Assembly: GCA_964429815.1 (NCBI GenBank)
Contig: CAYSCM010000001.1
Coordinates: forward strand, 32,001-96,000
DNA length: 64,000 nucleotides
Direction of reading: 5' to 3'
From: an uncultured Candidatus Saccharibacteria bacterium
GTDB lineage: Bacteria; Patescibacteriota; Minisyncoccia; Phycocordibacterales; CAYSCM01
The notes below the pieces were generated by a model, which saw only the letters and a list, made by a program, of their open reading frames with translations, was not told where the DNA came from and did not search any database. Shown here one piece after another: positions 1 to 41,689 of the stretch. Position 1 is the stretch's first letter, and every line of letters starts with the position of its first letter. The translations under genes and the position numbers were made by a program.

Positions 1-268
1 TTCCCCGCGCGCGAGCGTACGTGAGTGGGACGTTGTTGGAGCCCGAACCGTTGCGGGCAATGGTTTTGAGGTTGACCATCCGTGCAAGCGCATCGACAGT
101 GAGAATCTCGTGCCCAAGAAGAAGGGCGACGACCCTCTCAGGCTCCGCAAGTGCGCCTGGATTTCTTTCGTGAAGAACTTCGAGACCCGCATCCTTGGCG
201 AGAGTCTGGAAATCCTTTTTGCCCGCATAGGTTCCGGGCGTTACGACAAGAACATTTTCTTTCTGCAT
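1..268 (-). CDS. D-isomer-specific 2-hydroxyacid dehydrogenase family protein, N-terminal part (gene runs off left edge)
   Basis: Own translation from ATG at 268 (open at the edge, so absent from the ORF track): MQKENVLVVTPGTYAGKKDF...LKTIARNGSGSNNVPL. SD AAGGAG lies 6 nt upstream. Confidence 0.5.
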   Translation of the reverse strand, partial: MQKENVLVVTPGTYAGKKDFQTLAKDAGLEVLHERNPGALAEPERVVALLLGHEILTVDALARMVNLKTIARNGSGSNNVPLTYARARG

Positions 269-346
269 GCCCTTCTCCTTCTTTCGTGGCCAACTCATGG
301 GGCCCCTCGCAGTTGTTCGGGTTTGAGACGTGCAAAATCCTGGGCC

Positions 347-375
347 ATACTACTTACCGCTTGTCAAATAGTCAA
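347..375 (-). promoter_or_regulatory. sigma70-like promoter for the gene starting at 268
   Basis: Minus-strand TTGACT (375-370), 17-nt spacer, TAGTAT (352-347). It shares the TTGACTATT -35 context with two other promoters in the window. Confidence 0.45.
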
Positions 376-385
376 CTCCCCGATC

Positions 386-419
386 TATAAAAAGTTAAGA
401 GCGGTCCGAAGACCGCTCT
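386..419 (-). terminator. rho-independent terminator after the KdsC-like gene
   Basis: 9-bp stem AGAGCGGTC/GACCGCTCT with a 4-nt loop (398-419), followed on the minus strand by TAACTTTTTAT. Confidence 0.6.
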
Positions 420-1028: not shown

Positions 1029-1160
1029 GGTCCCTCCTGTTTGTTTGTTGGCTACTGTTTGGCCGGACGCATTCTGACACATCCATTTTATTTGTCAATA
1101 TTCTTCCAGGCTGTCTGGCAATAGAAACCCGTGCTAAGCTTCGCGAGTAACAAACGCGCT

Positions 1161-1697
1161 ATGGACCACCTTAGTCCAGAACTTAGGAAGAAATTCTCGC
1201 AGGTACAGTTTCTCGCGCTCGACTTCGACGGCATTTTCACCACGGGCCACGTGTACGTGCGCCAAGATGGAGAAGAAAGCGTTAAGTGCGACCGGCGCGA
1301 CGGCTTTGGGATTGAGCTTCTGCGCCGAGCCGGAGCCGTTAAAGCTTGCATCATCTCGCGAGAGCCAAACCCCGTCGTGACGGCGCGCGCAAAAAAGCTC
1401 CAACTCCCGGTGTGGCAAGGGATCGAGCGCGGAGGAGGAAAGCTCGAGGTACTCAAAGCTCACGTGGCCGAGCTCGGCATTGCGCTTGAGAACGTCGCAT
1501 ACATGGGGGATGACCTCATCGACATTGCGGTGCTACGAAGCGTCGGACTCCCTATCAGCGTCCCGAACGCCCATCCGAAAGCGCAGAGAGAGGCCCTCTA
1601 CGTCACCAGAGCAGGCGGCGGGGACGGAGCGATCCGTGAGGTCGCCGAGCTTCTCTTGCTAAGCAAAGGTTTCGACCTCGAGGAGCTCTCCCGTTAG
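1161..1697 (+). CDS. KdsC/YrbI-family HAD phosphatase (second, divergent paralogue)
   Basis: LALDFDGIFT, IISREPN and YMGDDLIDIAVL motifs. Divergently oriented to the 441-1028 paralogue. Confidence 0.7.
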   Translation: MDHLSPELRKKFSQVQFLALDFDGIFTTGHVYVRQDGEESVKCDRRDGFGIELLRRAGAVKACIISREPNPVVTARAKKLQLPVWQGIERGGGKLEVLKAHVAELGIALENVAYMGDDLIDIAVLRSVGLPISVPNAHPKAQREALYVTRAGGGDGAIREVAELLLLSKGFDLEELSR

Positions 1698-1737
1698 CCC
1701 AGTGACCCTTTATATGCGTGGTATGGTTATCTCACCT

Positions 1738-2454
1738 ATGAAAAACGATGTCGTGCTAGTGATCCCGGCTCGCGGTGGAAGCAAGGGAGTGCCGCGGAAA
1801 AATATCCGCCCGCTCTATGGAAAGCCCTTGGTTGCCTACACCATTGAAGCGGCGCTTTCCTCAGGAGCCATTAGCCGCGTTATTGTCTCGACCGATGATC
1901 AAGAGATTGGAGCAGTGGCAGAAAAATTTGGTGCGGAGTATCTTGACCGACCGAAAGAAATTTCCGGTGATAAGGTGACACTCGAGCCGGTGATTAAACA
2001 CGCTCTTGCGGCGCTAAAAGAAAAGGAAAACTACGTACCCACCTACATTGCCTGCATTCAGCCGACTTCCCCACTCCTTAGTGGAGATGTTATACGACGT
2101 TGTGTGGAAAAACTTACAAAAGAAAATTTTGATTCATGCATTACTGCGTTTTTGCCTGACACCTACGAATGGAAGTGGAGTCCAATCGTCAAAGACGGTA
2201 AAGAAGTCGGCTTCGAACCTGAACGACCTGTTATGAAGCGCGTGGTGCGGCAAGATTTGCCCAAGGTTTACCACGAGAACGGCGCCTTTTACGTCACCAA
2301 GACCTCACTTTTTAACGAAATCGGCCATCGCTGGGGAGGCAAGATGGCGATCGTTGAGATGACGCAGTTGAATTCTATACAAGTCGATAGCGAAGACCAA
2401 TTCTGGTTTATTGAACAGATCCTCCGCAAGCGCGAAAAAGACAACAAATCGTAG
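1738..2454 (+). CDS. acylneuraminate cytidylyltransferase family (CMP-ulosonic/nonulosonic acid synthetase)
   Basis: N-terminal VLVIPARGGSKGVPRKNIRPLYGKPLVAYTI is the NeuA/KdsB-type CTP-transferase signature. Confidence 0.8.
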   Translation: MKNDVVLVIPARGGSKGVPRKNIRPLYGKPLVAYTIEAALSSGAISRVIVSTDDQEIGAVAEKFGAEYLDRPKEISGDKVTLEPVIKHALAALKEKENYVPTYIACIQPTSPLLSGDVIRRCVEKLTKENFDSCITAFLPDTYEWKWSPIVKDGKEVGFEPERPVMKRVVRQDLPKVYHENGAFYVTKTSLFNEIGHRWGGKMAIVEMTQLNSIQVDSEDQFWFIEQILRKREKDNKS

Positions 2455-2564
2455 CCGCAGTCACTAGACAAATCATCGATTTTCTGGTCTATTGACACCA
2501 GTAACAGATCGCCCTCTAAAAATGTTTAGAGGGTAGGCTCTTTTACAGTTTACAGGAGGAACCA

Positions 2565-4307
2565 ATGACTCTCGAGCTCAGGGACTTTGTCCCGAAGAAG
2601 GCCCTCGGGCTCCATCCCGCCGACGTTGTCGCTGGGATTCCCTGGGGAGGACTCTCCGGTATGCGGGTGTGTTTCATCAACATGCCACTGCGGGAGTCCG
2701 CGAAGCCAAATACCCCGCCGCAAGGTCCCGGCCTTATGGCGGCCCGTCTTATGCAGTATGGCGCTGACGTCTCGATTATCGACCTCAACGGCTACCGTAT
2801 CGATGACGAAGAAGCGCACAAGCGCGGACTCGTCAATGGCCGACACGTCTCCCACAATGAGGCGCGTCAGCTCATCGAGGCGACTTTCCACAAGTTCGGC
2901 GAACCGCACGTGATTGGCCTTTCGGGGAAAATCACGACGTTGCGCTGGCAGGAGTGGACCGCCAAGACGTGTCGTTCGCTCGCTCCAGAGGCGTTTCTCA
3001 TCTCCGGCGGTGGGCTCGCGACCGAGTTCAAAGAAGGACTCTTCAGCTGGGTGCCGCAGCTCGACGCGGTCGGCCACTCGGAAGGCGACGACATCATGGT
3101 CGCCTGCGTGAATGACGTTCGCAAGAGCGGAGGCAAGCGCGAGCGCATGACCGACTCGCCCTACTACGTGGGCGAAATCGGCGGACGCCACCGCTTCCTC
3201 TATGCGGGCGATCGACCAAGGGACCTCGATGCGCTACCGTTTGCTGCGCTCGAACTTCTCGAAGAAGACGTCTTTGGCAATCGCATACTCGACGAGTACA
3301 TCGCGACCCCCGTATGGGGACTCGCGGCGAACAACTCGTCGGCGGCACCTTTCGAGATGAGGAAGTCTCTCACGACCGTCTCCTCTCGCGGCTGTCCGTA
3401 TGCCTGCGCGTTCTGCTTCCGTGGAGCGCAAGGCGAGCAAAAGTGGGGGATCCGCTCCCCCGAGAACCTGCGAGCCGAAGCCGAGTGGATGATTCGGAAG
3501 TATGGCGTGGATTTCATCGGGTTTCCCGATGACAACTTTGCCGTAAGCGTCAAGCGCTGCCAATCGCTTCCGGAGGCCTTTGACGGGCTCTCGTTTCGTT
3601 GGGGCACGCATACGCGCCTTGACGAATGCACGCTCGATCGGATCGTGCCCATGGCGAAAGCTGGGTGCATCTATATCGGCGTCGGTGCCGAATCGGCCTC
3701 GAAACACACCCTCTACCGCATGAAAAAGGGCGGACACATCGTCCGCAAGGACGGCGTGGAGCGTCTCACGAAATGGAACGGGTTCGAATTTCCGACAACG
3801 ATGATCGAGGGGATTCGAAATTGCCGAGACGTGGGTATCCACGTGAACGCGACCTGGATCATGGGATACCCAGGGGAAACCTTGGAGGACCTCAAGACCT
3901 CGGTTGCTTTCATTTCCTGGCAACAGGAGCACTACACCAAGGGATTGGTGCCCGGCACGCCGGAGTATCAAAATGCCTCGGCGTCGGTGAATCGACGCAT
4001 GTTCACGGCGACGTGGTATCCGGGGACCACCATGGTGGAAGCCCCCGAAGCCACGAAACCGCGGGAGCTCCTCGGCGAGCACTTCGGGATTCGTTTCGTC
4101 GAGAAAGGAAGCGGGCATGCACACAAGTTCGTCCCCGTTCCCGACGACGCAATGAAAGCCTATGTGCTGGAACTCGATGACGCGACTAAGATCCTCCACG
4201 GATCCGACGGAGCGCCCATCAACTACTCGGACATGCCGGAGGAGGTCTTCCTCGAGGCCCGTAGTCACATCGATTCGGGTCAAACGGAAAAGATCCTGTC
4301 GATGTAA
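2565..4307 (+). CDS. B12-binding-domain radical SAM enzyme
   Basis: N-terminal Rossmann-like B12-binding region (VCFINMPL...PPQGPGLMAARL) and CxxxCxxC cluster motif SSRGCPYACAFC. SD AGGAGG at 2554-2559. Confidence 0.8.
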   Translation: MTLELRDFVPKKALGLHPADVVAGIPWGGLSGMRVCFINMPLRESAKPNTPPQGPGLMAARLMQYGADVSIIDLNGYRIDDEEAHKRGLVNGRHVSHNEARQLIEATFHKFGEPHVIGLSGKITTLRWQEWTAKTCRSLAPEAFLISGGGLATEFKEGLFSWVPQLDAVGHSEGDDIMVACVNDVRKSGGKRERMTDSPYYVGEIGGRHRFLYAGDRPRDLDALPFAALELLEEDVFGNRILDEYIATPVWGLAANNSSAAPFEMRKSLTTVSSRGCPYACAFCFRGAQGEQKWGIRSPENLRAEAEWMIRKYGVDFIGFPDDNFAVSVKRCQSLPEAFDGLSFRWGTHTRLDECTLDRIVPMAKAGCIYIGVGAESASKHTLYRMKKGGHIVRKDGVERLTKWNGFEFPTTMIEGIRNCRDVGIHVNATWIMGYPGETLEDLKTSVAFISWQQEHYTKGLVPGTPEYQNASASVNRRMFTATWYPGTTMVEAPEATKPRELLGEHFGIRFVEKGSGHAHKFVPVPDDAMKAYVLELDDATKILHGSDGAPINYSDMPEEVFLEARSHIDSGQTEKILSM

Positions 4308-4325
4308 TCCAGTTCTCTCACTCAG

Positions 4326-4357
4326 GGACCGCAGCAATGCGGTCCTTTTTTATTTTT
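4326..4357 (+). terminator. rho-independent terminator
   Basis: GGACCGCA gcaa TGCGGTCC followed by TTTTTTATTTTT. Confidence 0.75.
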
Positions 4358-4431
4358 ATGGTCGTTCGCATCCTCATCCTGACCAATCATCGTGCTTTTT
4401 GATGTGAGCGTGCTTTAGGTATAGTGGAGCG

Positions 4432-5394
4432 ATGAAGATAGTACGGTGGTCCATACCCAAGCACCTCGATCTGTCGATTGAGATTTCCGGTAGAGAACAT
4501 ATGGCACAGGGAGAAAAGATGGGGTCTACGAAAGCCTTGGATGTCCTGCGCGGAATAACCTTCAGCGGCTCAGCGCCGGCGATACAGTTTGCCGATGTCG
4601 AGTCTTTATTTTCCTTTGTAGAAAAAAAATTTTTACATAAGACATTTGCGGGAGTCGGCATCGAAGTCGGCGCGGGGCCGATGATATTTAGCTCGCTCCT
4701 TACGCGCTCACGACCAAACATTCAACAGATGTATGGAATCGAACTAAGTGGCGGTATCGTAGAATTCATTGCCCCGGGAGTGGTTGATGAATTGCTGGGA
4801 CCCAAGAGTGAAAAGGTAGTCGGGGTCATCGGCAGTTTCGACGCGATGGAGCTTACAAGCGAGAGTGTCGATTTTGTTCTTGATTTTATGTCGCTTCACC
4901 ATGCGACCGACCTCGGAGAGGCGTTCGCCGAATGCTACCGGGTGCTAAAACCAGGCGGCTTCGTTGTTCTTTTTGACAAGGCTCGCCCCGATTCCTTCAC
5001 CTCTCAAGACCTGGAGGGATTGCTCAATACCGAGTACAGCGATGAAGAGAAAAAACGCTTTGGGGTGCCTTCCGGCGAACACTTTACACGCCGGATGAAC
5101 GGGGAAAAAGAATACCGGCTTAAAGATTGGTCGGCGGGGGCCTTAGAGGCCGGTTTCCCGACCCTTATGCATTGGCGACTCGCGCGCACCAACGTGCCGG
5201 GTATCTCAGGATTGTACCGACGTTTGCTTTCTCATGTGCCGCTACGCACCCAGATGGCTACTACCGCTATTGCACAAAGCGTACTGGGCAGCGGCTCAAG
5301 AGTGAAGTTTTCACAAAAAAATTTGGTGTACTCGCGGTACGTGAACCCCTTCCCCCGCGAGATCTCGCTCATGATCGCGCACAAGGCTTACTAA
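4432..5394 (+). CDS. class I SAM-dependent methyltransferase
   Basis: Motif I GIEVGAGPM and post-I VLKPGGFVVLFD. Confidence 0.65.
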   Translation: MKIVRWSIPKHLDLSIEISGREHMAQGEKMGSTKALDVLRGITFSGSAPAIQFADVESLFSFVEKKFLHKTFAGVGIEVGAGPMIFSSLLTRSRPNIQQMYGIELSGGIVEFIAPGVVDELLGPKSEKVVGVIGSFDAMELTSESVDFVLDFMSLHHATDLGEAFAECYRVLKPGGFVVLFDKARPDSFTSQDLEGLLNTEYSDEEKKRFGVPSGEHFTRRMNGEKEYRLKDWSAGALEAGFPTLMHWRLARTNVPGISGLYRRLLSHVPLRTQMATTAIAQSVLGSGSRVKFSQKNLVYSRYVNPFPREISLMIAHKAY

Positions 5395-6299
5395 CTTCTC
5401 CACGCGCTCAGGTCGCGCCCGGTAAATGCCTCGAGTTTTTGCAGTTCGGGTTCATAGCGAGCGCGGAGGGCTTCTTTGAGCTTCGGGTCGAGCGTCCCGT
5501 AGCTAGCTTCCCCGGTCCCCGCCCTCGTGTCGATGGAGCGCACTACTTTTTGGTGGAGCGGCGTTTTGCGGAAGAGGGAGAGGAGGGGCTCTCCGAATGG
5601 CAGGGCTTTGAGTAGCTTCCGCGCCCTGAGCGCGTGTCTGCGCAAGAGTGTCGCTCCGGCGGAATTTATGGTCGTGGCGAGCGAGGGCGGCACGAACGAG
5701 GCATCGACGCCGATGAAAGAAAAGATATCTCTCATATATTTTTTTGGGTCGGCACGCATATCGTCATAGAACGTAATGAGTATCTGGTCGCGGGAAAATA
5801 CCTTGAGATAATTTTCGAGGTGCTTCATATAGAAGCTCTCCTCGATAAACGACGGTTTAGTTTTAATAATTTCCTCAAGGGTTGGGAGCTCATGTGCGCC
5901 CTTTAGCTTCGTGTACATGTAGTGGGAAAAAAAGCGCTCCGTAGGGTTTCGCAATACCGCAATGATCTTCGCTTTAGGAAAATGTGTACGGAGGCGCTCC
6001 GGCACCTCGGGTGCGTGAATATAGATAGGAGTGACTTCTCCGTATACCCTCTTCCCTACACAGTGACCAAAATGTTCAAAATACCCTTCGAGAGCGCCGT
6101 TGTATTTTGTTTTCCCCACCAAATCAGTGCGCCAGAAACTTTGCGTCGTGTTAAAAAAGTTGAGCTCTTTGGGTTCGGAAACACAGACCTCGGGGTGCTC
6201 TTTGAGACATTGGTGGAGCCAGGTGGTGCCCGTCCGCTCCGGACCAATCACGAAGAAATCAATGGAAAAAGGCTTTGCTGTAGATGAAATGGTACTCAT
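5391..6299 (-). CDS. sulfotransferase family protein
   Basis: 5'-PSB-like FFVIGPERTGTTWL and 3'-PB-like LRNPTERFFSHY PAPS-binding motifs. Confidence 0.75.
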   Translation of the reverse strand: MSTISSTAKPFSIDFFVIGPERTGTTWLHQCLKEHPEVCVSEPKELNFFNTTQSFWRTDLVGKTKYNGALEGYFEHFGHCVGKRVYGEVTPIYIHAPEVPERLRTHFPKAKIIAVLRNPTERFFSHYMYTKLKGAHELPTLEEIIKTKPSFIEESFYMKHLENYLKVFSRDQILITFYDDMRADPKKYMRDIFSFIGVDASFVPPSLATTINSAGATLLRRHALRARKLLKALPFGEPLLSLFRKTPLHQKVVRSIDTRAGTGEASYGTLDPKLKEALRARYEPELQKLEAFTGRDLSAWRS

Positions 6300-31243: not shown

Positions 31244-31246
31244 TCG

Positions 31247-33283: not shown

Positions 33284-33291
33284 AGGGAAAA

Positions 33292-34515: not shown

Positions 34516-34516
34516 G

Positions 34517-36331
34517 TTAGGTTTTTATGGAAAATGCTTTCGCCCACAGCTGGAACACCAGGAGACTCCACAGGCTTTGGAGATGATATCCGCCTTGCTG
34601 GTGGTCCTTGCGAAGCCGTTCTATCTCATGCCAGTTAAAAAGGCTTTTTGTTTCGACGTAAAATGATGGAGAAAGTACCTCCCTGGCAAATGCTGCGACG
34701 TCGGGACGACGCAGCCACTTTGCGGCTGGAGAAAACCACCCCCTTTTTTCCTGGCTGAGGAGAAACTCCGGCACATGACCGCGGAGCGCCTCTTTGTAGA
34801 GTATTTTTTTATCAAACGACGAAATGAGATCGCTCTGGGATAATCGATCCGCGAAGGAAAGAAGCTCCAGGTCGAGGAGCGGCACGCGCACCTCAAGCCC
34901 CGCGGCCATCCCCATCTTATCGGTACGCAGTAGCGCCTCATCGACAAGCCAATTCTTTCTGTCGACGGCCATGAACTGTTTTTCAAATGACTTCTCTACC
35001 GTCGGGAATCTGTTGCTCAGATATTCGAGGACGGGCTCACTATTGTTGTCACCTTTTTCAAGAATCGCTTGCACAGTATCCTCCGTTTGCAACATGAACC
35101 ACGCGAAACGCTCTCCTCCCTCTTCTGTCGACAGGGGTTTTAGTTTTTTATTGAGCAACCCGAGCTTTGAAAATAGCGGAATGCGACGAAGTAAACTTAG
35201 CTGATGTGATTTGCGATAACGCTCATATCCACCAAAGAGTTCATCGCCCCCGTCACCTGCGAGAGCTACTGCAACCTGCGGTTTTGTGAATTCCGCAAGT
35301 TTGAGCATAGAAAGCGACGTCGGATTCCAGTTTGGATCATCGAGATGCCAAACCGCCTTTTCGAGATAGGGGATAACCTCTGTGGCGGAAAAGAGGACAC
35401 TATGATGTTCAACACCAAACTGTGCCGCAGCGCGCTTGGCAAGTTCAAGATCTGCATTGAATTTTTCTTTTTGCTCTCCCTCCTCAAGTTCAAACCCTAC
35501 GCTAAACGTTTTCAGTTTGTGTCCCGTCTCAAAGAGAGCTGCCAGGATAGCATTTGAATCTAGGCCTCCCGAAAGATAGAGCCCTACTGGGCGATCAGAA
35601 ACAAGTTGGCGACTTACGCCCCCCTTCAACACTTCCCATAGCTTGTGCGCGCGGTCTGTTCGGTCCGCTGGCAGGAAAATCTCTCTCTCATACGCTTGGT
35701 ATGTGCTAAGTGATATTTCGCCACGACGGTACTTGAGCACCTGACCTGGTTGAATACGAGATATGCTCTCAAACATTGTCGTGGGTCCTGGCGTATAGAG
35801 AAATCGGAAATAGAGATTGAGCGAATCGCGATTAAGTTTTCGAGTAATTCCCGTTTCGAGGAGCGCCTTGATCTCCGAAGAAAAAAAGAGCTCGTTATCC
35901 TTTTCTAGATAGTAAAGAGGCTTGATGCCGACCGGGTCGCGCACGAGATAGAGAGTTTCTTCTCTCTCGTCCCAGAGCGCAAAAGCAAACATGCCATTGA
36001 AACGTGAGAGGCAGTCAACTCCCCATCTCTCCCACGCCGCCAAGATAACTTCGGTATCGCTCTCGCTCCGAAAGGGGTAGGCCGGCAATTCTTTCTTGAT
36101 ATCGCGGTAGTTGTAGAGTTCTCCGTTGTAGGTAATGGTGAATCGCCCGTCGTGGCTTGCCATCGGCTGTTTGCCACCCTCGGAGAGGTCAATGATAGCG
36201 AGGCGATTGTGCCCCAAGGTTACTTTCCCAGCCCAAAGCCCCGTGCCGTCGGGGCCCCGGTGGTTGGTTTCTTTATTCATCCGCTCAACAAGAGCGGAGT
36301 GACTTCCCGTACATCCGTTAATGCCGCACAT
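34517..36331 (-). CDS. asnB: asparagine synthase (glutamine-hydrolysing) family amidotransferase
   Basis: MCGI N-terminal nucleophile Cys and the SGGLDS PP-loop motif. Confidence 0.85.
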   Translation of the reverse strand: MCGINGCTGSHSALVERMNKETNHRGPDGTGLWAGKVTLGHNRLAIIDLSEGGKQPMASHDGRFTITYNGELYNYRDIKKELPAYPFRSESDTEVILAAWERWGVDCLSRFNGMFAFALWDEREETLYLVRDPVGIKPLYYLEKDNELFFSSEIKALLETGITRKLNRDSLNLYFRFLYTPGPTTMFESISRIQPGQVLKYRRGEISLSTYQAYEREIFLPADRTDRAHKLWEVLKGGVSRQLVSDRPVGLYLSGGLDSNAILAALFETGHKLKTFSVGFELEEGEQKEKFNADLELAKRAAAQFGVEHHSVLFSATEVIPYLEKAVWHLDDPNWNPTSLSMLKLAEFTKPQVAVALAGDGGDELFGGYERYRKSHQLSLLRRIPLFSKLGLLNKKLKPLSTEEGGERFAWFMLQTEDTVQAILEKGDNNSEPVLEYLSNRFPTVEKSFEKQFMAVDRKNWLVDEALLRTDKMGMAAGLEVRVPLLDLELLSFADRLSQSDLISSFDKKILYKEALRGHVPEFLLSQEKRGWFSPAAKWLRRPDVAAFAREVLSPSFYVETKSLFNWHEIERLRKDHQQGGYHLQSLWSLLVFQLWAKAFSIKT

Positions 36332-37373
36332 GTTCGATAAGTATAGTCGAAATCGTTTTTACGATGGCTTTGGTGCTGAAGCGCTCTCCCGCCACACGCG
36401 AGAGGTACGCTCCGATCTGGGGGCGGTCGACCGACTCGACGAGCGCACGTATTCGCTCCGCGAGCGCTATGGGGTCGCGTTCGGGAAAGGTGAGACGCGA
36501 GGCGTACTGCCCAAAGTATCCGCTAAACGCGACATTGCTCACGATGGGAGGTGTTCCCGCGGCCATGGATTCGATGACGGCTTTATCGAGGCCGCCGGGC
36601 GGGGTCATATTGACGGAAACGCTCGCCCGACAGTACCACACGGGAAGTCCCTCGTTGGGAATGGAGCCTATAAAACGGACGGTCTTCCCTAGTCCGCGTT
36701 CTTCGACGAGCCTGAGAAGCTTTTTTTCATATGCGCGATCGCTTTCGTGGACCGGAGCTCCAATGAACGTGACGCTGAACCTCTCCTTCCAGTGACGCTT
36801 TAAGATCTCTGCCGCCTCGATGAGCGTATCGCAGTTCTTGATGGGCGTGATACGCCCGACGCTTATGACGGCACGCTCCTCACGCGCAGAGCTCTCGCAG
36901 GCAAAGCGCCCCACCTCGATGCCATGCCCGAGAATGTGAAGTTTCCGCGACGGCAACCGAAAGCTGTAGCGCGATGCGGTTAAGACCGCGTGGCTGAAAA
37001 GATGCGCTACGTAGAGCTTGAGGTTCACCTGCCGATGCGTATACCATAATCCGACCCGCTTTCCCATAAGGCGCCAGGGTATGCCGCCCAAGACGACATA
37101 CTCGGGATTCATGTGAACGAGTACGACGTCGTACGGACGACGGATGGAAAAAATATATTGATAGAAACGCCACAGGTACGTGAGCCTCCCGGCACCTTCC
37201 TCCTTCCCCAGCGAGCGCACATGGACGTTCTCGGGTAGTGTAGCTCCTCCGCGTTCAAGACAGATGACCTCGACGGCCGTAAAGTGCCGTGCGAATTCCT
37301 GCAACCACGATATGACGTACGCTAGAAGATCGTCGTCTTCGTCAATTTTCTGGGTAATAAAGAGGAGTCGCAT
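36318..37373 (-). CDS. GT4-family glycosyltransferase
   Basis: GT-B C-terminal domain GGLDKAVIESMAAGTPPIVSN. Confidence 0.75.
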   Translation of the reverse strand: MRLLFITQKIDEDDDLLAYVISWLQEFARHFTAVEVICLERGGATLPENVHVRSLGKEEGAGRLTYLWRFYQYIFSIRRPYDVVLVHMNPEYVVLGGIPWRLMGKRVGLWYTHRQVNLKLYVAHLFSHAVLTASRYSFRLPSRKLHILGHGIEVGRFACESSAREERAVISVGRITPIKNCDTLIEAAEILKRHWKERFSVTFIGAPVHESDRAYEKKLLRLVEERGLGKTVRFIGSIPNEGLPVWYCRASVSVNMTPPGGLDKAVIESMAAGTPPIVSNVAFSGYFGQYASRLTFPERDPIALAERIRALVESVDRPQIGAYLSRVAGERFSTKAIVKTISTILIEHVRH

Positions 37374-37374
37374 G

Positions 37375-38478
37375 TCAGTTCGTGAGAAGGTCGATATAGC
37401 GCTTCAGGTATTCCTTCTTGGTTGCCGCAAAGCCGGTGAGGCCGAGAACGAAATCCCCTGCCGTCGCCCTGCCATCTTTAATGGTCTCTCGCAGTGCGTC
37501 AGCGAACTCATTTATTGAGCGGCCTGCGACGATGGCGGAGCGTGCGCCGAGATTGTAGAGCTCCCGGGCTACGCCTACATCGGTCGACACGAAAGGGCAC
37601 CCGAGTGCCGCGGCTTCGACAAGCGCGAGTCCGTAGCCGTCATAAGCGCTGGTGAAAAGGAGGGCATCCGCGCTTTTATAGAGGCCGCCGAGATTCTCTC
37701 TCCAGCCCATGAATACAACTCTGTCGGAAATACCGAGGTTTTTTGCCCGAAACTCCAAATGTGCCCGGTCACTTCCATCTCCGGCAATACAAAGCCCTAC
37801 CCCTTTCGGCTGCAAGGCTATAACATCAATGGCCAGAGCGATGCCTTTTTCTTTCTCAAGCCGAGCCGCAACAAGCACGTGCTTGCGAAATTGCGGGTAC
37901 ATTTTCTTGAGATCACTACCTTCTTCTTCCCAGAGTTTTTTGAGATCCGTAAATATCGGCAGTACGTGGACGGGAGCTTTCAGGCGGAGGGGCCGTAGCG
38001 AGTCGACTATGCGTTTGCTGACGACGCGTATTGAGTTGGTTTTGGGTAAAAGTATCGTGCCGATGAACACTCGCAGGCGATTGAGCATCGAGAGCGAAGC
38101 AAAATAGGGGCTCAAAAAATCAGTATGGATCTGCGCCTGGAAGCGTGCGCGATGATACCGAGCCAGCCGCCAACCGACGAGCCCCGTCTCGAAGGGGTCT
38201 TGCGTGCTCACGACCGAGACACCCTTGATTTTTTTGCCGATGCGGTAGGCGCCCAACAGGTACAAGAGTCTGTGGCATGCACTCGTCGGATACAGGAAGA
38301 GATTTTCCTCTGCCACAGCAGCAAACCCGTGTCTTTTTGTCGAAAACACGATGACGTGAAGCTCGCTTCCTTTGTGCCTATGTGTTTCGAGCGCGTGAGC
38401 ATACTCCCGCAGGCGCTGCCGCACGGCGGAGCGCTCGTCGAATGCCTTTCGGTCTGTTGATACCATGAGCACCTTCAT
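37375..38478 (-). CDS. GT4-family glycosyltransferase
   Basis: YDGYGLALVEAAALGCPFVSTDVG. Confidence 0.75.
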   Translation of the reverse strand: MKVLMVSTDRKAFDERSAVRQRLREYAHALETHRHKGSELHVIVFSTKRHGFAAVAEENLFLYPTSACHRLLYLLGAYRIGKKIKGVSVVSTQDPFETGLVGWRLARYHRARFQAQIHTDFLSPYFASLSMLNRLRVFIGTILLPKTNSIRVVSKRIVDSLRPLRLKAPVHVLPIFTDLKKLWEEEGSDLKKMYPQFRKHVLVAARLEKEKGIALAIDVIALQPKGVGLCIAGDGSDRAHLEFRAKNLGISDRVVFMGWRENLGGLYKSADALLFTSAYDGYGLALVEAAALGCPFVSTDVGVARELYNLGARSAIVAGRSINEFADALRETIKDGRATAGDFVLGLTGFAATKKEYLKRYIDLLTN

Positions 38479-39587
38479 ACGTTTTTCTTCAAGAATTCCT
38501 CCACAGCCTCAACCATCTTCGCTTCAGAAAATTTGGCAAGCGAGCGCCTCCCTGCCGCGGAAAGTTTCCCCGCAAGTGAGCGCTCCCCGAGCACCCGGAG
38601 CATCGCGGTCTCCAGGGCTTTCCGATTGTTGTAGGGCACAAGAAGTCCGTTTTTGCCATCCTCGATGACTTCCGGGTTACCACCAACTTTGGTCGTCACG
38701 ATCGGAGTGCCGACGGCAAGGACTTCGAGAAGTTGGTGCGAGAGCCCTTCGTAGCCGGTATTGAGAACAAAAAGGTCCGCCGCTTTGATGTAGCGCAGGA
38801 GAACGTCGCGCTCGAGATTTCCTGCCAGAACGACATTCTCCTCGAGGCCTTTCGTTTCAATGAGCGTCTCAAGAGCTCCTCGCTGTGGCCCGTCCCCGGC
38901 AATCATGAGCTTCACGTTGGGGAATTTTTTACGTAGCGTCGGCACGGCCGAGATGAGGGTCTCAAAACCCTTCCAGGGTACGAGGCGCCCTGCGGACATG
39001 ACAAAAACCCCGTCGAACTGGAGTATCCCGCGCAGTACGTCGCGCCTCCCGGAGACCGCAATATCTTCAACGGCGCTTAAAATGACCTCGATTTTTTTTG
39101 CTTCGATCCCCCACTTCCCTATGACTTTCTTGAAATAGGCGCTCGGCACGATGATGCGCCGCGCCTTGCGGGCGACGTAGCGCTCGACGAAGACGAAGAG
39201 ACGGACAAGCGGGTGCGTTTGTCCCTGCTTTACGAAATCGTCGAGAAGTTCGGTGACACCGAATCGGTTCATGCCCTGCTCCCACGCGAAATCCCCCGCG
39301 ACGCGTAAGAGGAAGGTCTTTTTTCGAAACGAGGCGACGAGTGCAGCCGGGAACCCCACGGAAACGGGGTCGAGGGCGAGAATGGCGTCACAGCTCTCCG
39401 AGAGCTTCCACAGGAGGGCTAGGTACACGAGGTGGCGTACTCCGGGCGGAAACTTCCGGACCTTCCCAAAGTAGGCGACGGAAATTTCGATGCCGCGGCC
39501 GGGGAGGTGTGTGATGAGGCTTTTGGCAAAAGTAGCCGGCCCGCCGACATCAGGGGGGAGAAGCGGGGTCGCTAGCAAGAGCCGCAT
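38475..39587 (-). CDS. GT4-family glycosyltransferase
   Basis: YEGLSHQLLEVLAVGTPIVTTKVGG. Start MRLLLATP preferred. Confidence 0.75.
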   Translation of the reverse strand: MRLLLATPLLPPDVGGPATFAKSLITHLPGRGIEISVAYFGKVRKFPPGVRHLVYLALLWKLSESCDAILALDPVSVGFPAALVASFRKKTFLLRVAGDFAWEQGMNRFGVTELLDDFVKQGQTHPLVRLFVFVERYVARKARRIIVPSAYFKKVIGKWGIEAKKIEVILSAVEDIAVSGRRDVLRGILQFDGVFVMSAGRLVPWKGFETLISAVPTLRKKFPNVKLMIAGDGPQRGALETLIETKGLEENVVLAGNLERDVLLRYIKAADLFVLNTGYEGLSHQLLEVLAVGTPIVTTKVGGNPEVIEDGKNGLLVPYNNRKALETAMLRVLGERSLAGKLSAAGRRSLAKFSEAKMVEAVEEFLKKNV

Positions 39588-39620
39588 AGGAGTAGTATAA
39601 CGGCAAACCATGGCTCTCGG

Positions 39621-40829
39621 TCAGCGCGAAAGGAGCGGCATAAATACCCTTTCGCGCATACCGGCAGCGACGAGGCTCCAGTCATATTTTTCAAACACGA
39701 GCTTGCGAGCATACTTGACGACTCCCGAGACCTTCTCGGGACCGGCAAGAATATCTTCGACCGCCGCGACGATATCGCTCGGAGAGTCTTTATCGACGGC
39801 CCACCCGGTGGTCGGTTTGTCGGGGTTTCGTTTCGCATCAAACAGGAAGTCCGCAATGCCCCCTTCCTGGGTCCCAATGACGGGAATTCCTGCTGCCATA
39901 GCTTCGATGAATGAATTTCCCATGCCCTCCGAGCGGCTCGGGCGGATGAAAATATCGCACGCTTTGAGATACTTCGGCATCTCGTCATGAGAGAGCTGGC
40001 CGAGGAATTTCACCCGCCTCTCGACCCCAAGCTCCCGCGCAAGGGCCTTTAGTTTTATCTCGTCGGGCCCGACGCCAAAGACGACGAAATGGACACTCTG
40101 TGGAAGGCCGCGCTGTGCGCGTATGACGTCGTCGACAGCGTTTTTGTGGACAAGCCGGGAAGTCGTCACCAGAAAAACATCGCCCTCTTTCTTGCCGAGG
40201 AGCGTCTTCACCGTTTCCATCTCCTCGGGCGGATAGGAGGCCGAGAAACGTTTGGTATCAACGGCGTTCGGGATGATTTCAAGGCGCCCCTTGAAACCTC
40301 GTCGGCGCGCCCAGGAGCCTAAGAACGTGGAGATCGCTTGGATAGTGTCGGCCGTCGTGAAGGCGCGAGAAAAAAGTGGCCATACCGGGCGAGCCAGGCG
40401 TTCGATATGCTCCGGTGGATCACCTTCTTGGAGGGTGAGAATAAACGGGACCTTGGGGTGGAACCACTTGAAAAGCGCCGCGGGGATGCCACATGAGTGC
40501 GCCATCATTGCCCAGATAGCATCGAAGTGATACCTCCGGTGAAGCGAGAGGGCCTTCCAGGCCGCAAGAAACTGAAAGAGATGCTTATTGTAGTGGAGGG
40601 GAAATCGCTTAAGGTCTGCCATCGTGGGGTTCGGACGCGCAGGCCCAATGCGATGGACATACACATTTCCTATTTTTTCTTCCTTGGGAAGGGAGGAGTC
40701 GAATCTCAGGCACACCATGTGAAGTTCAATTTCAGATGTAGCAATGCGATCAGTAATTTCTTTGATAGCCACCTCTGCCCCGCCCACGTGCGGGTAATAG
40801 GTCAGGGAAAAAATGAGTATTCGTTTCAT
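39621..40829 (-). CDS. GT4-family glycosyltransferase
   Basis: SEGMGNSFIEAMAAGIPVIGTQEGG. Start MKRILIF at 40829 forms an ATGA overlap with the upstream gene. Confidence 0.8.
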   Translation of the reverse strand: MKRILIFSLTYYPHVGGAEVAIKEITDRIATSEIELHMVCLRFDSSLPKEEKIGNVYVHRIGPARPNPTMADLKRFPLHYNKHLFQFLAAWKALSLHRRYHFDAIWAMMAHSCGIPAALFKWFHPKVPFILTLQEGDPPEHIERLARPVWPLFSRAFTTADTIQAISTFLGSWARRRGFKGRLEIIPNAVDTKRFSASYPPEEMETVKTLLGKKEGDVFLVTTSRLVHKNAVDDVIRAQRGLPQSVHFVVFGVGPDEIKLKALARELGVERRVKFLGQLSHDEMPKYLKACDIFIRPSRSEGMGNSFIEAMAAGIPVIGTQEGGIADFLFDAKRNPDKPTTGWAVDKDSPSDIVAAVEDILAGPEKVSGVVKYARKLVFEKYDWSLVAAGMRERVFMPLLSR

Positions 40830-41689
40830 GTGCGCCGCGCTTCCTTGATGTATTCCTCGACGGACTTGGTTATCTTCCACCCGATGGATTCCGACCTACT
40901 GGTATCGATCGCGGAGCTCATACGATTCCCTGCACGCTCGGGAAGCATTTTAATTTCAGTGCCAAACAGTTTCGCAATGTCGAGGATGGAATATTCACGC
41001 ACATCCCCCAAACCATAGTCATCGCCCTCCCCCCTTTCCCCAACAATCACAAGTCCCTCGACAATGTCGTGCACGTGGGTAAAGTTGCGTTTTTGGGTGC
41101 CGGGAGACACGACCGTAAGGGGTTCCCCCGCAAGATATTTTTGTCGGAAGATTTCTATGACCGTACCGTACGCCCCCGCACGTTCACGCGGCCCATACAC
41201 GTTGTAAAAATAGGTGATCGCGTACGGGACGCCAAACCACACGCCGTAGTTATGAACCAGGTCCGTATTGCTTGCCTTACACCACGCATAGGGGCTCTGG
41301 TGCCTCCCAAGCCCATCATCAGCAAATTTTGTGGACGATCCGGCGTAGACGAGTTTTGATCCACGGTTTCGACAGAACTCCACCACCCCAAATGTTCCAA
41401 GTACATTGAGGTCCCATACCAGTGAAGGCTCGTCAAAGCTCTTTTCGACACGGGAATACTCCCCGAGGTGATATACAACATCAGGTTTCTCCGGTATGTG
41501 CGTGTCGATATCTTTGGTATGCCCCTCGCGATAGGTGACTCCAGGGACGTGATTTTCCCTCGAGCCGGTGAAATAGTTATCGAGGGATATGACCTTATGC
41601 CCATCTTTCGCGAGACGTTCACATAAGTGTGAGCCTATGAAACCGGCTCCGCCGGTCACTAGGATGAGTTTTTGTATAGCCAAAGCCAT
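40826..41689 (-). CDS. NAD-dependent epimerase/dehydratase (UDP-glucuronate decarboxylase-like)
   Basis: LVTGGAGFIGSHLCERL, LDNYFTGSRENH and YAWCK motifs. Confidence 0.75.
   Translation of the reverse strand: MALAIQKLILVTGGAGFIGSHLCERLAKDGHKVISLDNYFTGSRENHVPGVTYREGHTKDIDTHIPEKPDVVYHLGEYSRVEKSFDEPSLVWDLNVLGTFGVVEFCRNRGSKLVYAGSSTKFADDGLGRHQSPYAWCKASNTDLVHNYGVWFGVPYAITYFYNVYGPRERAGAYGTVIEIFRQKYLAGEPLTVVSPGTQKRNFTHVHDIVEGLVIVGERGEGDDYGLGDVREYSILDIAKLFGTEIKMLPERAGNRMSSAIDTSRSESIGWKITKSVEEYIKEARRT

Follow-up and report, generated by a model that had tools for sequence, protein, structure and literature searches.

The DNA analysed here, a stretch of 64,000 nucleotides (the window), carries a large glycan island that runs past its left edge, spanning window positions -13274 to 42498 (approximately 55.8 kb, 53 genes), which is 11% of the 502-kb contig (501,704 bp, the longest contig with island genes). 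The first-pass annotation had proposed a locus of more than 41 kb and around 40 genes; the large size stands, but base 1 is merely the edge of the window, and the locus continues to the left for 13.3 kb on the same contig. This extension adds NeuB, a second CMP-transferase, a PAPS synthase and a Wzy_C+TPR protein with 12 transmembrane (TM) segments, followed by SecA. Its genes lie on one 63-kb Logan contig that covers SecA through tRNA-Ile and matches the window with 100% identity over the common part. Within the window, 32 of the 40 genes of the locus are on the minus strand, 12 of the 39 gene junctions overlap and 29 are spaced by 20 nt or less. The earlier description of a near-unbroken minus-strand array with many overlaps needs correction for the eight plus-strand genes, which form four blocks by the gene calls (1131-5394, 12216-13496, 24721-25977 and 29975-31243). 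Families were assigned gene by gene with Pfam and NCBIfam. The earlier assignments held in this domain search, every class being present, including seven GT4 glycosyltransferases, two sulfotransferases, an amidotransferase (AsnB) and a Wzx flippase. Because almost none of the NCBIfam scores reaches its equivalog cutoff, the families can be considered established but the substrates cannot, and the sugar identities given below are guesses. Glycan-pathway families are found in approximately 46 of the 53 island genes, and Logan assemblies made independently from two sequencing runs are 100% identical to the window; the clustering of these genes is therefore not a chance pattern.

Coordinates refer to the window, and genes are on the minus strand unless marked plus. 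The window opens within a 338-aa 2-hydroxyacid dehydrogenase (1-298, N-terminal part; the gene extends to the left), recognised by Pfam 2-Hacid_dh on the identical Logan contig and PGDH/glyoxylate-reductase-like by NCBIfam below cutoff. It is followed by a 195-aa HAD-family phosphatase (441-1028; Pfam Hydrolase_3, 25.4 bits), a KdsC-type ulosonate-phosphate phosphatase (1131-1697, plus; TIGR01670, KdsC-phosphatase subfamily, 114.3 bits, above the cutoff of 106.95; KDN-9-P phosphatase model, 90 bits) and the first of two CMP-ulosonic-acid synthetase-like cytidylyltransferases (1738-2454, plus; Pfam CTP_transf_3, 103 bits; PseF model, 150.9 bits, below the cutoff of 205.7). The block with NeuB and the second CMP-transferase, at the far left of the island, also has a 358-aa unknown protein with a predicted UDP-GlcNAc 2-epimerase/NeuC-like fold. 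No nonulosonic-acid transferase was identified in the locus. Two plus-strand genes follow: a B12-binding radical-SAM enzyme (2565-4307; Pfam Radical_SAM, 58.9 bits, and a weak B12-binding match), which has weak matches to B12-rSAM methyltransferase models and is a candidate C- or P-methyltransferase, and a SAM-dependent methyltransferase (4432-5394; Methyltransf_11, 50.7 bits). Regarding sulfation, the locus has two sulfotransferases (5391-6299; Sulfotransfer_1, 80.2 bits, and Sulfotransfer_3, 68.3 bits; and 29070-29924; Sulfotransfer_3, 79 bits), and the case is strengthened by the island's own bifunctional PAPS synthase, just left of the window.

A putative heptose/branched-sugar cassette of approximately 15 genes has counterparts with 45-70% identity in other metagenomic contigs of 38-41% GC (L086 and L091 among them), where it moves as a unit with its own Wzx. 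The genes in this part of the window begin with a GmhA-like SIS-domain sugar-phosphate isomerase (6296-6931; SIS_2, 59.5 bits; gmhA model, 94.8 bits, below the cutoff of 209) and two cassette members, a Zn-dependent alcohol dehydrogenase (6928-7932; ADH_N and ADH_zinc_N), matched by a Zn-ADH gene (Pfam) at the equivalent position in L091, and a SAM methyltransferase (7934-8587; Methyltransf_31/25/11; 64% identity to its L091 homologue). The ALS/YerE-like thiamine-diphosphate enzyme (8597-10366; TPP_enzyme_N/M/C, 118-135 bits; ALS large-subunit model, 448.8 bits, below the cutoff of 538; 65-67% identity to L086 and L091) is a candidate for the C-branching of a keto-sugar. Next to it are an FkbM-family methyltransferase (10371-11228; Methyltransf_21, 41.7 bits), a short-chain dehydrogenase/reductase of the cassette (11245-12042; adh_short, 75.9 bits; 51-52% identity to L086 and L091) and the Wzx-type flippase (12216-13496, plus; Polysacc_synt, 61.7 bits; at least seven hydrophobic segments). 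The 407-aa soluble protein at 13509-14732, also part of the cassette, has no Pfam or NCBIfam match and no predicted TM segment, and only seven homologues were found among 5.8 billion proteins. In a Foldseek search of the PDB with its AF2 model (pLDDT 79.5), the top nine hits were all GT9 (WaaC, WaaF and 3tov; E 4e-6 to 4e-4), so that its predicted GT-B fold best matches GT9 heptosyltransferases; in the Kaiserbacteria island described below, a Pfam-recognised GT9 adjoins ADH, E1 and PfkB genes. The series continues with an HldC-like sugar-1-phosphate nucleotidyltransferase (14734-15231; CTP_transf_like, 62.6 bits; rfaE_dom_II model, 112 bits, below the cutoff of 181.5, versus 37 bits for the TagD model), an NDP-sugar 4,6-dehydratase-like SDR (15234-16238; GDP_Man_Dehyd, 158.9 bits; dTDP-glucose dehydratase model, 188.7 bits, below cutoff), and E1 beta-like (AviB2-like) and E1 alpha-like (AviB1-like) thiamine enzymes. 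The former (16250-17317; 65-70% identity to L086 and L091) has transketolase pyrimidine-binding and C-terminal domains (Transket_pyr, 103 bits; Transketolase_C, 100.7 bits), and the latter (17310-18269; 62-66% identity to the same contigs) matches E1_dh with 230.6 bits. The genes after these encode an NAD-dependent sugar epimerase (18271-19248; Epimerase, 123.5 bits; heptose_epim model, 72 bits, below cutoff), an HldA-like PfkB sugar kinase (19251-20297; PfkB, 49.5 bits; rfaE_dom_I model, 102 bits, below the cutoff of 345), a TagF-like glycerophosphotransferase or glycosyltransferase (20354-21724; Glyphos_transf, 50.4 bits; BFO_1060 family model, 43.5 bits, below cutoff; 68% identity to L086), a DegT-family sugar aminotransferase (21721-22821; DegT_DnrJ_EryC1, 355.9 bits) and a methyltransferase (22818-23537; weak family matches; 50% identity to L086). 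No GmhB gene was identified in the locus.

The genes from 23530 to 36331 include two GT4 glycosyltransferases of the variable region (23530-24669 and 27937-29073; Glycos_transf_1, 128 and 58.9 bits) and a GT4-like one (33292-34515; Glyco_trans_1_4, 47.2 bits), a NUDIX hydrolase (24721-25362, plus; NUDIX, 38.7 bits) and a 164-aa protein without Pfam match (25483-25977, plus; gene call). An NDP-sugar epimerase/dehydratase (26016-26996, start shifted to an internal Met; Epimerase, 150.4 bits; 58% identity to L086) is followed by a short NDP-sugar dehydrogenase of 309 aa (26978-27907), which has the N-terminal and central UDPG_MGDP_dh domains only, without the C-terminal one; its L086 homologue (298 aa, 56% identity) is equally short. 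Further genes encode an NDP-sugar C-methyltransferase (29975-31243, plus; Methyltransf_14, 155.8 bits, with Methyltransf_13 and Methyltransf_23), a GDP-mannose 4,6-dehydratase (32252-33283; GDP_Man_Dehyd, 383.3 bits; gmd model, 394.8 bits, just below the cutoff of 415) and a Gmd paralogue (31247-32251; GDP_Man_Dehyd, 360.7 bits; gmd model, 333.5 bits, below the same cutoff), possibly a GDP-4-keto-6-deoxymannose reductase. GDP-mannose supply genes were not identified in the locus. An AsnB-type glutamine amidotransferase (34517-36331; Asn_synthase, 238.5 bits; TIGR01536, 424 bits, above cutoff) is the last of these genes.

The right side of the island is conserved. Four consecutive GT4 genes (36318-37373, 37375-38478, 38475-39611 and 39621-40829; Glycos_transf_1, 71-133 bits), whose homologues, taken individually, are found in 35-51 of 56 relatives, are headed by an NDP-sugar epimerase (40826-41689; Epimerase, 151.9 bits) present in 32 of the 56 with a median identity of 66%. 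The adjacent anchor gene encodes an LTD-domain surface protein (41719-42498; LTD, 49.8 bits) whose N-terminus is signal-like and which has a linker rich in Pro/Ser/Ala and a TM anchor at the C-terminus; it occurs at the equivalent position in L008 and in 12 of the 56 relatives (tblastn), and is a candidate glycan acceptor. The right-hand anchor is a T4SS-coupling-protein-like ATPase (T4CP; 42479-44305; TrwB_AAD_bind and T4SS-DNA_transf, approximately 30 bits each). Farther right, an NDP-sugar epimerase (55287-56231; Epimerase, 210.5 bits) adjoins the polyprenyl-phosphate sugar-phosphate (priming) transferase (56237-57586; Bac_transf, 182 bits; five TM segments), and an eighth GT4 diverges from the latter (57650-58762, plus; Glycos_transf_1, 126 bits), both as placed by the first-pass annotation at 56237-58762. 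The priming transferase, 15 kb outside the island, could serve another polymer; in the relative L016, just SecD, SecF and DUF4015 lie between it and T4CP.

The best 80 genomic relatives of the flanking T4CP gene are all Patescibacteria MAGs, and for this reason the host, suspected earlier to be CPR-like, is assigned by homology to the CPR/Patescibacteria, Parcubacteria-type (Paceibacterota). The right anchor is T4CP-LTD-epimerase-4xGT4 and the left anchor Wzy_C/TPR-(MurB)-SecA. In relatives the order RsmI-DUF4015-T4CP-(LTD)-epimerase-GT4x4 is conserved, with the exact four-GT4 order downstream of T4CP in 33 of the 56 Patescibacteria loci with enough flank; on the left, MurB-SecA comes after Wzy_C+TPR in L094, L095 and L096, and in L008 a 220-aa FAD_binding_4 (MurB-like) ORF and SecA come after it. 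From anchor to anchor, L008 has approximately 2.8 kb, the complete 617-kb chromosome OZ244961.1 has 25.4 kb, Kaiserbacteria JACPLB010000007.1 has 33.6 kb and the present genome has 53.6 kb, and the anchors share one orientation in all four. The present island is thus the largest of the four measured and no singular oddity. A tiny-genome CPR bacterium does spend some 56 kb, about a tenth of its 502-kb contig, on one surface-sugar island, as the earlier remark on a striking investment implied, but the two relatives with islands of approximately 25 and 34 kb show that the lineage normally has a large island at this position. Elsewhere the same chromosomal site holds shorter islands of other composition, with ordinary GT2/GT4/PMT genes, and the 109 ORFs after the core array in 34 relatives are mostly GT4, GT2, methyltransferases and epimerases. 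This comparison with relatives, conserved anchors around differing content and length, suggests that the locus is probably a variable cell-surface glycan island.

As the first-pass annotation had supposed, the set of genes is consistent with a surface glycan that is heavily modified by methylation, sulfation, amidation and C-branching. A pathway can be proposed, each step from homology and synteny. The Bac_transf enzyme would prime undecaprenyl phosphate, and the neighbouring GT4 and the conserved four-GT4 array would build a lineage-conserved core oligosaccharide, to be extended by the island-specific three further GT4, the TagF-like enzyme and the novel GT9-like protein. A CMP-nonulosonic/ulosonic acid donor would come from the 2-epimerase-fold proteins, NeuB, the KdsC-type phosphatase and the two CMP-transferases. 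The GmhA/HldA/HldC-like genes would supply a heptose-like NDP-sugar, which may be dehydrated (4,6-dehydratase), aminated (DegT), methylated and C-branched via the ALS-like and E1 alpha/beta thiamine enzymes and reductases. GDP-6-deoxyhexose donors would be made by the two Gmd genes and the C-methyltransferase, and an amidated uronic acid donor possibly by the NDP-sugar dehydrogenase and AsnB. The two sulfotransferases would draw PAPS from the bifunctional synthase, Wzx would flip the lipid-linked glycan, and Wzy_C+TPR may move it as one block onto an acceptor, which may be a wall component or a protein, for example the neighbouring LTD protein.

More than one product could come from the island. 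The 56 kb may represent two or more co-located glycoconjugate systems instead of one pathway, which we consider possible but rather unlikely; one conceivable split is a conserved wall or core polymer (priming transferase and GT4 array), a separate system that modifies protein with nonulosonic acid, and a heptose/branched-sugar polymer that has a flippase and a GT9-like transferase of its own. Strand switches part at least five transcription blocks, the cassette travels into other contigs with its own Wzx, the NeuB block sits at the far left with two CMP-transferases in the locus, and the TagF-like enzyme suggests a phosphodiester-linked polymer. On the other hand, there is one Wzx, one Wzy_C-family protein and one priming transferase only (window -14.5 kb to 64 kb), and the two anchors are those of the single small L008 locus. 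It is doubtful that Wzy_C+TPR acts as a genuine Wzy polymerase and that a long capsule- or O-antigen-like repeat-unit polysaccharide is made here by the classical Wzx/Wzy pathway. A Wzx and a 12-TM Wzy_C-family protein do share one locus whose general layout is like that of O-antigen and capsule clusters, but no Wzz/PCP chain-length regulator was found in the window and left extension, and approximately 11 transferases is a high number for a single repeat unit. That the variable part is a secondary-metabolite cluster making a glycosylated antibiotic is very improbable. Deoxysugar pathways of antibiotics are typically marked by B12-radical-SAM enzymes, C-methyltransferases, E1 alpha/beta (AviB1/B2-like) and DegT. 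The cassette composition recalls these, AviB1/AviB2-type enzymes being known from the avilamycin and paulomycin pathways (PMC4753412), but PKS, NRPS, aglycone and resistance genes are absent from the region, which has Wzx, Wzy_C and a priming transferase, sits between envelope genes and holds ordinary GT2/GT4/PMT genes in relatives. Least credible is a chimeric assembly, the objection foreseen in the first-pass annotation, or a region acquired very recently from outside the CPR: its GC ranges from 0.49 to 0.57, the lowest tetranucleotide correlation with housekeeping genes is 0.785, at 10.4-15.4 kb, and the cassette occurs in contigs of lower GC, but the signature agrees throughout (r = 0.79-0.93) with no sharp break, the two-run assemblies are identical and one contig joins SecA to tRNA-Ile, both ends keep Patescibacteria synteny, and cassette homologues of only 45-70% identity argue against recent transfer.

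No Wzy, Wzz or ABC exporter had been recognised in the window by the first-pass annotation, and none was found inside it, but the search beyond it for a polymerase or ligase found the Wzy_C+TPR gene ('O-antigen-ligase family') 11 kb to the left, next to SecA. It has more than 4475 homologues, the best 120 of which are 43-62% identical over the full length; the organism-named ones among these 120 are Parcubacteria-type/Patescibacteria, save one candidate division KSB1. A PDB sequence search matched only the TPR part. Wzy polymerases are normally repeat-unit-specific and highly divergent in O-antigen systems. Because Wzy_C+TPR keeps this level of identity among Parcubacteria and the glycan genes that lie between the anchors have been exchanged almost wholly, we favour an en bloc ligase over a repeat-unit polymerase, on the conservation pattern only, a pattern typical of WaaL/PglL-type ligases and unlike that of serotype-specific Wzy polymerases.

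The glycan locus, which the first-pass annotation had put at more than 41 kb and about 40 genes, is real, larger and better organised than it first appeared, and its glycan product is predicted from gene content. An exact-protein look-up matched the region to a Logan contig of 63,154 bp that corresponds to positions -14554 to 48599 of the window (negative coordinates lie left of base 1), and a 501,704-bp contig at NCBI has the same proteins on record. From the gene of an LTD-domain surface protein (LTD, 41719-42498) to that of a Wzy_C-domain protein left of base 1, the locus covers 55,773 bp and 53 genes, approximately 11% of the 502-kb contig.

ORFs were mapped, and each candidate gene of positions 1-41689 and of the rest of the window was scanned against Pfam, key genes also against NCBIfam. 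The list of families first drawn up from the sequence alone holds almost gene for gene. All seven GT4 glycosyltransferases are found by Pfam (23530-24669, 27937-29073, 33292-34515, 36318-37373, 37375-38478, 38475-39611 and 39621-40829), together with two sulfotransferases above Pfam cutoffs (5391-6299 and 29070-29924), an AsnB-type amidotransferase (34517-36331; TIGR01536, 424 bits, above cutoff) and a MOP-family flippase, Wzx (12216-13496; Polysacc_synt, 61.7 bits against a cutoff of 28.2). The sugar routes proposed earlier are likewise represented: CMP-ulosonic acid, at family level, by a KdsC-type phosphatase and a CMP-transferase (1131-2454), GDP-6-deoxyhexose by two Gmd-family genes (31247-33283), and the aminated, C-methylated and C-branched sugars by a DegT aminotransferase (21721-22821), a Methyltransf_14 sugar C-methyltransferase (29975-31243), an ALS-like thiamine enzyme (8597-10366) and an E1 alpha/beta pair (16250-18269). 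A B12-binding radical-SAM enzyme is encoded at 2565-4307. The nucleotide-heptose route fared less well: GmhA-like (6296-6931), HldA-like (19251-20297) and HldC-like (14734-15231) genes are present and these are their best NCBIfam matches, but their scores lie far under the equivalog cutoffs (94.8 against 209, 102 against 345 and 112 against 181.5 bits, respectively), and the locus genes gave no hit to the GmhB phosphatase, only generic HAD phosphatases. Overall, the enzyme families are established, and nearly all NCBIfam scores fall under equivalog cutoffs and do not fix substrates. The picture of a near-unbroken minus-strand array with many overlaps of 1-20 nt had to be softened, as eight of 40 genes lie on the plus strand, in four blocks, and genes overlap at 12 of the 39 junctions, with a spacing of 20 nt or less at 29. 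Three alternative ORFs without family hits in Pfam were dropped, two on the plus strand (474-1124 and 2-424) and one on the minus strand (3234-4337).

Left of base 1 the locus continues with, in order, two 2-hydroxyacid dehydrogenases, two AAA_33 kinase-like genes, a NeuB-family synthase, a cupin, an uncharacterised 342-aa protein, a second CMP-transferase, an uncharacterised 152-aa protein, a HAD_2 phosphatase, an uncharacterised 358-aa protein and a bifunctional 608-aa PAPS synthase (-11069 to -9243; PUA_2, ATP-sulfurylase and APS_kinase domains). It closes with a 723-aa protein that contains a Wzy_C domain and 12 hydrophobic segments and has TPR repeats at its C-terminus (Wzy_C+TPR, -13274 to -11103), beyond which a spacer of about 650 nt leads to the start of SecA. 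Because Wzy_C+TPR lies left of base 1, the earlier statement that no Wzy was present is valid for the window and not for the locus. The scan of genes between -14.5 kb and 64 kb gave no family of Wzz/PCP chain-length regulators. The sulfated product that had been proposed gains a PAPS supply from the 608-aa synthase, so that two sulfotransferases, an ATP sulfurylase and an APS kinase form a PAPS-dependent sulfation set that is complete at family level.

The left part also bears on the ulosonic acid. The NeuB-family synthase (332 aa, -4448 to -3450) carries PF03102 and reaches 250 bits with the NeuB_NnaB model (equivalog cutoff 399.65). Both putative CMP-sugar synthetases are CTP_transf_3 genes (103 bits in Pfam for the first copy) and score about 151 bits with the PseF model, which has a cutoff of 205.7, and the KdsC-subfamily phosphatase exceeds the cutoff of its NCBIfam model. 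The predicted structure of the 358-aa protein (pLDDT 95) has a UDP-GlcNAc 2-epimerase/NeuC-like fold (E ~1e-9, TM-score ~0.62). A word-indexed search with this protein found only itself, while an exhaustive HMMER search found 69 distant homologues, two of them on contigs too short for informative gene context; the 342-aa protein appears to be its distant paralogue. Since the 358-aa fold, NeuB, the KdsC-type phosphatase and two CMP-transferases occur together, an ulosonic-acid route through a phosphorylated intermediate is plausible. No ulosonic-acid transferase of the sialyltransferase, Maf or Kdo-transferase families was recognised among the locus genes.

A 407-aa protein encoded at 13509-14732 had no hits in Pfam, including Glyco_transf_9, or in NCBIfam. 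The best PDB matches to its AF2 model (pLDDT 79.5) are GT9 heptosyltransferases, the top nine hits being WaaC, WaaF and 3tov (E 4e-6 to 4e-4, TM-scores 0.43-0.55), and by this predicted fold it is a candidate GT9-like transferase. Its position beside Wzx raised the possibility that it was the missing Wzy polymerase, which was ruled out by the prediction of no TM segment and a soluble GT9-like fold. Among 5.8 billion proteins it has seven homologues (33-47% identity), found on contigs of 38-41% GC with the same neighbour genes as here: Wzx, TagF-like, PfkB, HldC-like, epimerase, SDR, ALS-like enzyme, E1 alpha, E1 beta, dehydratase, methyltransferase and Zn-ADH. The genes of this recurrent cassette are 44-70% identical to those of the window in two metagenomic contigs, L086 and L091, and 29-44% identical in a partial copy, L089. 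L086, which comes from the 0.1-µm fraction of Hainich groundwater, has two further features in common with the locus, a PAPS synthase and a run of genes for the short NDP-sugar dehydrogenase, an epimerase, a GT4, a methyltransferase, DegT and the TagF-like enzyme. In the Kaiserbacteria island L096, a GT9 that can be recognised by sequence lies beside ADH, E1 and PfkB genes.

For the 165-aa nucleotidyltransferase, an HldC-like identity is preferred to the TagD/CDP-glycerol reading because it scores 112 bits with the HldC model and 37 with TagD, although TagD stays possible on account of the TagF-like neighbour. L089 encodes a nucleotidyltransferase fused to a PfkB kinase (11226-12770) in the order CTP_transf_like-PfkB, whereas canonical HldE has the kinase first. 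The NDP-sugar dehydrogenase at 26978-27907 has only 309 aa and is without the C-terminal domain; its homologue in L086 (2513-3409, 298 aa, 56% identical) has the same shape, and because this contig is unrelated the truncation is considered conserved and not a pseudogene artefact.

Two-carbon branching of 4-keto sugars is known to be carried out either by a single YerE-type flavoenzyme or by an AviB1/AviB2 E1-like pair (PMC4753412). The cassette has both, a YerE-type (ALS-like) and an AviB1/B2-type enzyme, here and in L086 and L091, and the co-occurrence of both thiamine enzyme types with heptose-like activation genes points to a putative branched higher sugar that has not been described. In this gene set the ALS-like and E1 alpha/beta genes lie next to a 4,6-dehydratase and reductases, in agreement with the YerE pathway of yersiniose O-antigens and the AviB1/AviB2 pathways of avilamycin and paulomycin, which install an acetyl or hydroxyethyl branch at C-4 of 4-keto sugars (PMC4753412). 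In contrast to those systems, both enzyme types occupy one cassette here, together with HldA/HldC/GmhA-like and GT9-like genes, whose presence suggests a heptose-derived substrate, which would be new for either type of system.

In order to identify the host, the T4SS-coupling-protein-like ATPase next to the LTD gene (T4CP, 42479-44305) was searched against one genome per species and the best 80 loci were taken. All are from Patescibacteria MAGs (54-75% identity) labelled Adlerbacteria, Kaiserbacteria, Nomurabacteria, Zambryskibacteria or only Paceibacterota/Parcubacteria. In the relatives' loci the homologues of RsmI, DUF4015, SecD/F, FtsW and SecA are syntenic and 50-67% identical, the 16S gene (50519-51980) is unlinked from 23S-5S (60916-64000) in the window, and the GC content along the window (0.49-0.57) agrees with the values in Adlerbacteria MAG names. 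Together, the T4CP relatives and the housekeeping synteny support the CPR-like host that had been supposed.

The genes that follow T4CP here, for the LTD protein, the epimerase and the four GT4 enzymes, also follow it in the relatives. Counted over the 56 relatives' loci whose flank reaches 7 kb or more, homologues of the four GT4 genes are present in 51, 44, 48 and 35, respectively, their exact order is kept in 33, and the epimerase is found in 32 (median identity 66%). Past this array the loci differ in content. In a set of 109 ORFs taken from 34 relatives, GT4 (21), methyltransferases (14), GT2 (13) and epimerases (7) are the most frequent families, followed by GT47 (5), PMT_2 (4) and NDP-sugar dehydrogenases (3), and the relative L037 carries two genes for sulfotransferases in this part. 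At the other end, Wzy_C+TPR is a gene conserved in Parcubacteria: at E ≤ 1e-20 its homologues number more than 4475, and the best 120 are 43-62% identical along their full length. Those that are named in their source are annotated as 'O-antigen ligase family protein' and come from Kaiserbacteria, Yonathbacteria, Lloydbacteria and other groups; one bears the label candidate division KSB1. Three relatives (L094, L095 and L096) have Wzy_C+TPR followed by MurB and SecA, and a fourth, L008, has it followed by a 220-aa FAD_binding_4 (MurB-like) ORF and SecA. In this genome about 650 nt without a called gene (L084, 15109-15756; window about -13922 to -13275) take the place of MurB, which must therefore have been lost or be encoded at another site.

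The distance from T4CP to Wzy_C+TPR could be compared in four genomes with both on one contig and in the same orientation. It is about 2.8 kb in L008, where only an LTD+PKD protein and one GT4 lie between, 25.4 kb in the complete 617,472-bp chromosome OZ244961.1, 33.6 kb in Kaiserbacteria JACPLB010000007.1 and 53.6 kb here, the largest of the four and 1.6-2.1 times the two mid-sized ones. Because the anchors are conserved while spacing and content vary, the locus is an enlarged case of a lineage-wide variable glycan island.

Some features of the anchors deserve mention. T4CP is predicted to lack TM segments, its gene shares 20 nt with the LTD gene, and in the Patescibacteria relatives it immediately precedes the glycan island, a consistent link of a VirD4/TraG-like ATPase to a glycan locus. 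A membrane-anchored, putative glycoside-hydrolase-like DUF4015 protein (44620-45975, 289 bits) is encoded just upstream of T4CP in 25 of 53 relatives' loci with enough upstream flank and may be functionally part of the glycan system. An SIS+CBS (KpsF/GutQ-like) isomerase gene lies a few genes upstream of Wzy_C+TPR in L094 (3270-4244), L095 (8991-9956, directly adjoining) and L096 (3236-4204); this genome has no SIS+CBS isomerase at that position, only the GmhA-like SIS protein.

The earlier placement of a priming transferase and an eighth GT4 at 56237-58762 was confirmed by Pfam. The former (56237-57586; Bac_transf, 182 bits; five TM segments) lies 15 kb outside the island, and in the relative L016 only SecD, SecF and DUF4015 separate it from T4CP. 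We propose that this enzyme would prime undecaprenyl phosphate, that a conserved core would be made by the adjoining GT4 together with the array of four GT4 enzymes kept among relatives, and that island-specific transferases would lengthen it using donors made by the island; the glycan would then be methylated, amidated and sulfated, flipped by Wzx and transferred by Wzy_C+TPR. The preference between ligase and polymerase for the last enzyme is guided by its conservation among relatives. It has PF04932 on record (64.9 bits against a cutoff of 31.7 in the L008 orthologue) and 12 hydrophobic segments, in keeping with the multi-TM Wzy_C proteins of WaaL/PglL-type systems, and a PDB sequence search matched TPR proteins only. 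Its orthologues stay 43-62% identical while the islands differ in content and length (2.8-54 kb). WaaL/PglL ligases and Wzy enzymes are known to contrast in this behaviour, PglL-type enzymes having a Wzy_C domain and tolerating many glycans. By this analogy we favour a ligase or oligosaccharyltransferase over a polymerase, since it persists across relatives whose glycan genes have been swapped and the scanned stretch has no Wzz. The LTD protein at the right-hand end of the locus is a candidate acceptor for such a ligase: its N-terminus is signal-like, its linker is rich in Pro, Ser and Ala, and it ends in a C-terminal TM anchor. Less probable rivals are several co-located pathways instead of one, and a true Wzx/Wzy polymer.

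A chimeric assembly of the region is very unlikely. Across the shared part the 63,154-bp Logan contig is 100% identical to the window, as are smaller Logan contigs from a second run, and the tetranucleotide profiles of 5-kb chunks correlate with those of the housekeeping genes of the window at r = 0.79-0.93, without a sharp break. A secondary-metabolite cluster was considered and rejected. Right of the island, 16S (50519-51980) does not adjoin 23S-5S (61464-64000 and 60916-61021); about 9 kb with FtsW, GT4, priming transferase, epimerase and SecDF genes lie between them. From 16S to tRNA-Ile/tRNA-Leu (48309-48616) about 1.9 kb are without family hit, and the independent Logan contig terminates within tRNA-Ile. 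Just upstream of 16S, a 274-aa ORF (52387-53211; about 7-9 hydrophobic segments, no Pfam hits) shares 220 nt with the 3' end of SecF in a different reading frame; it may be spurious, or a real small membrane protein whose start lies further downstream. Between RsmI and the tRNAs (47268-48282), a C39-like peptidase (40.5 bits) adjoins a weak CHAP-domain protein; the pair are possible cell-wall or secretion-processing enzymes.

Taken together, these data allow a broader reading, which we offer tentatively and regard, as a whole, as somewhat improbable. Parcubacteria/Paceibacterota would share an undescribed, class-wide surface-glycosylation system whose constant parts are the T4CP-like ATPase, LTD, the epimerase, the four-GT4 core array and Wzy_C+TPR next to MurB/SecA. 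Between these parts a hypervariable island, from 3 kb to over 50 kb long, would set the outer glycan. Here this would be a sulfated glycan with nonulosonic acid and a new heptose-derived C-branched sugar, made by the YerE-type plus AviB1/B2-type cassette and installed by a new GT9-like transferase family, and the glycan would serve as a variable recognition surface towards the cells or phages met.

The abundance of glycosyltransferases in Parcubacteria has been noted before, with 20 in Ca. Parcunitrobacter, and the gap in knowledge of the CPR cell envelope was stated explicitly in the same paper (PMC5220378). Our literature search found no description of the anchored island, of sulfotransferase/PAPS genes in a CPR glycan locus or of the cassette, and no prior description of nonulosonic acid or glycan islands in CPR. 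The envelope of CPR bacteria, how they recognise cells and how phages recognise them are largely unknown, and the present analysis gives a genome-anchored handle on them: with a fixed site and conserved anchors, any MAG can be screened for the variable surface-glycan genes of Parcubacteria, and this genome, by the share of its contig in the island, is an extreme case. A mere polysaccharide cluster would be routine; host lineage, anchor structure and chemistry raise the interest of this one. Leads for further work are PAPS-dependent sulfation in a CPR organism, for which we found no linking paper, the recurrent cassette for an undescribed branched higher sugar, and two protein families without Pfam/NCBIfam matches, for which the predicted folds give candidate functions.

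In layout the locus is a Wzx-type heteroglycan cluster. Like the Wzx/Wzy O-antigen and capsule clusters of Proteobacteria and Firmicutes, it has NDP-sugar genes, a run of glycosyltransferases, Wzx, a Wzy_C-family protein and a Bac_transf priming enzyme, with hypervariable content between conserved flanks. It differs from them in its CPR host, without an LPS context in the examined sequence and without Wzz, in a Wzy_C protein that has a TPR domain and is conserved class-wide instead of serotype-specific, in a priming transferase 15 kb away and in a disproportionate size, 56 kb against a longest contig of 502 kb.

By analogy, the logic of the locus resembles that of the 27-kb cluster for general protein O-glycosylation in Tannerella forsythia (PMC6120980). 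As in PglL-type systems, many glycosyltransferases and methyltransferases and, as proposed here, a species-specific outer glycan on a conserved core are common to both, and the TagF-like gene gives a weak match, under cutoff, to the NCBIfam model of the BFO_1060 family glycosyltransferase. The T. forsythia glycan reportedly contains nonulosonic acid and an amidated uronic acid, and candidate routes to both are found in this locus. Core and variable genes are contiguous here, whereas in T. forsythia the core is encoded at another place in the genome; this locus would add C-branching by thiamine enzymes and sulfation from PAPS.

In genomic arrangement the locus resembles the hypervariable glycosylation regions of free-living bacteria with streamlined genomes, such as HVR2 of SAR11, and the cwps locus of Lactococcus with its conserved and variable parts, where surface-glycan genes of variable content and length occupy a fixed site between conserved flanks and take up a large share of a small genome. 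The fixed site, the variable glycan genes and the large share of a small genome recur here in another lineage, with other anchors (T4CP/LTD and Wzy_C-TPR/MurB/SecA) and with variation among distant genomes rather than within a population.
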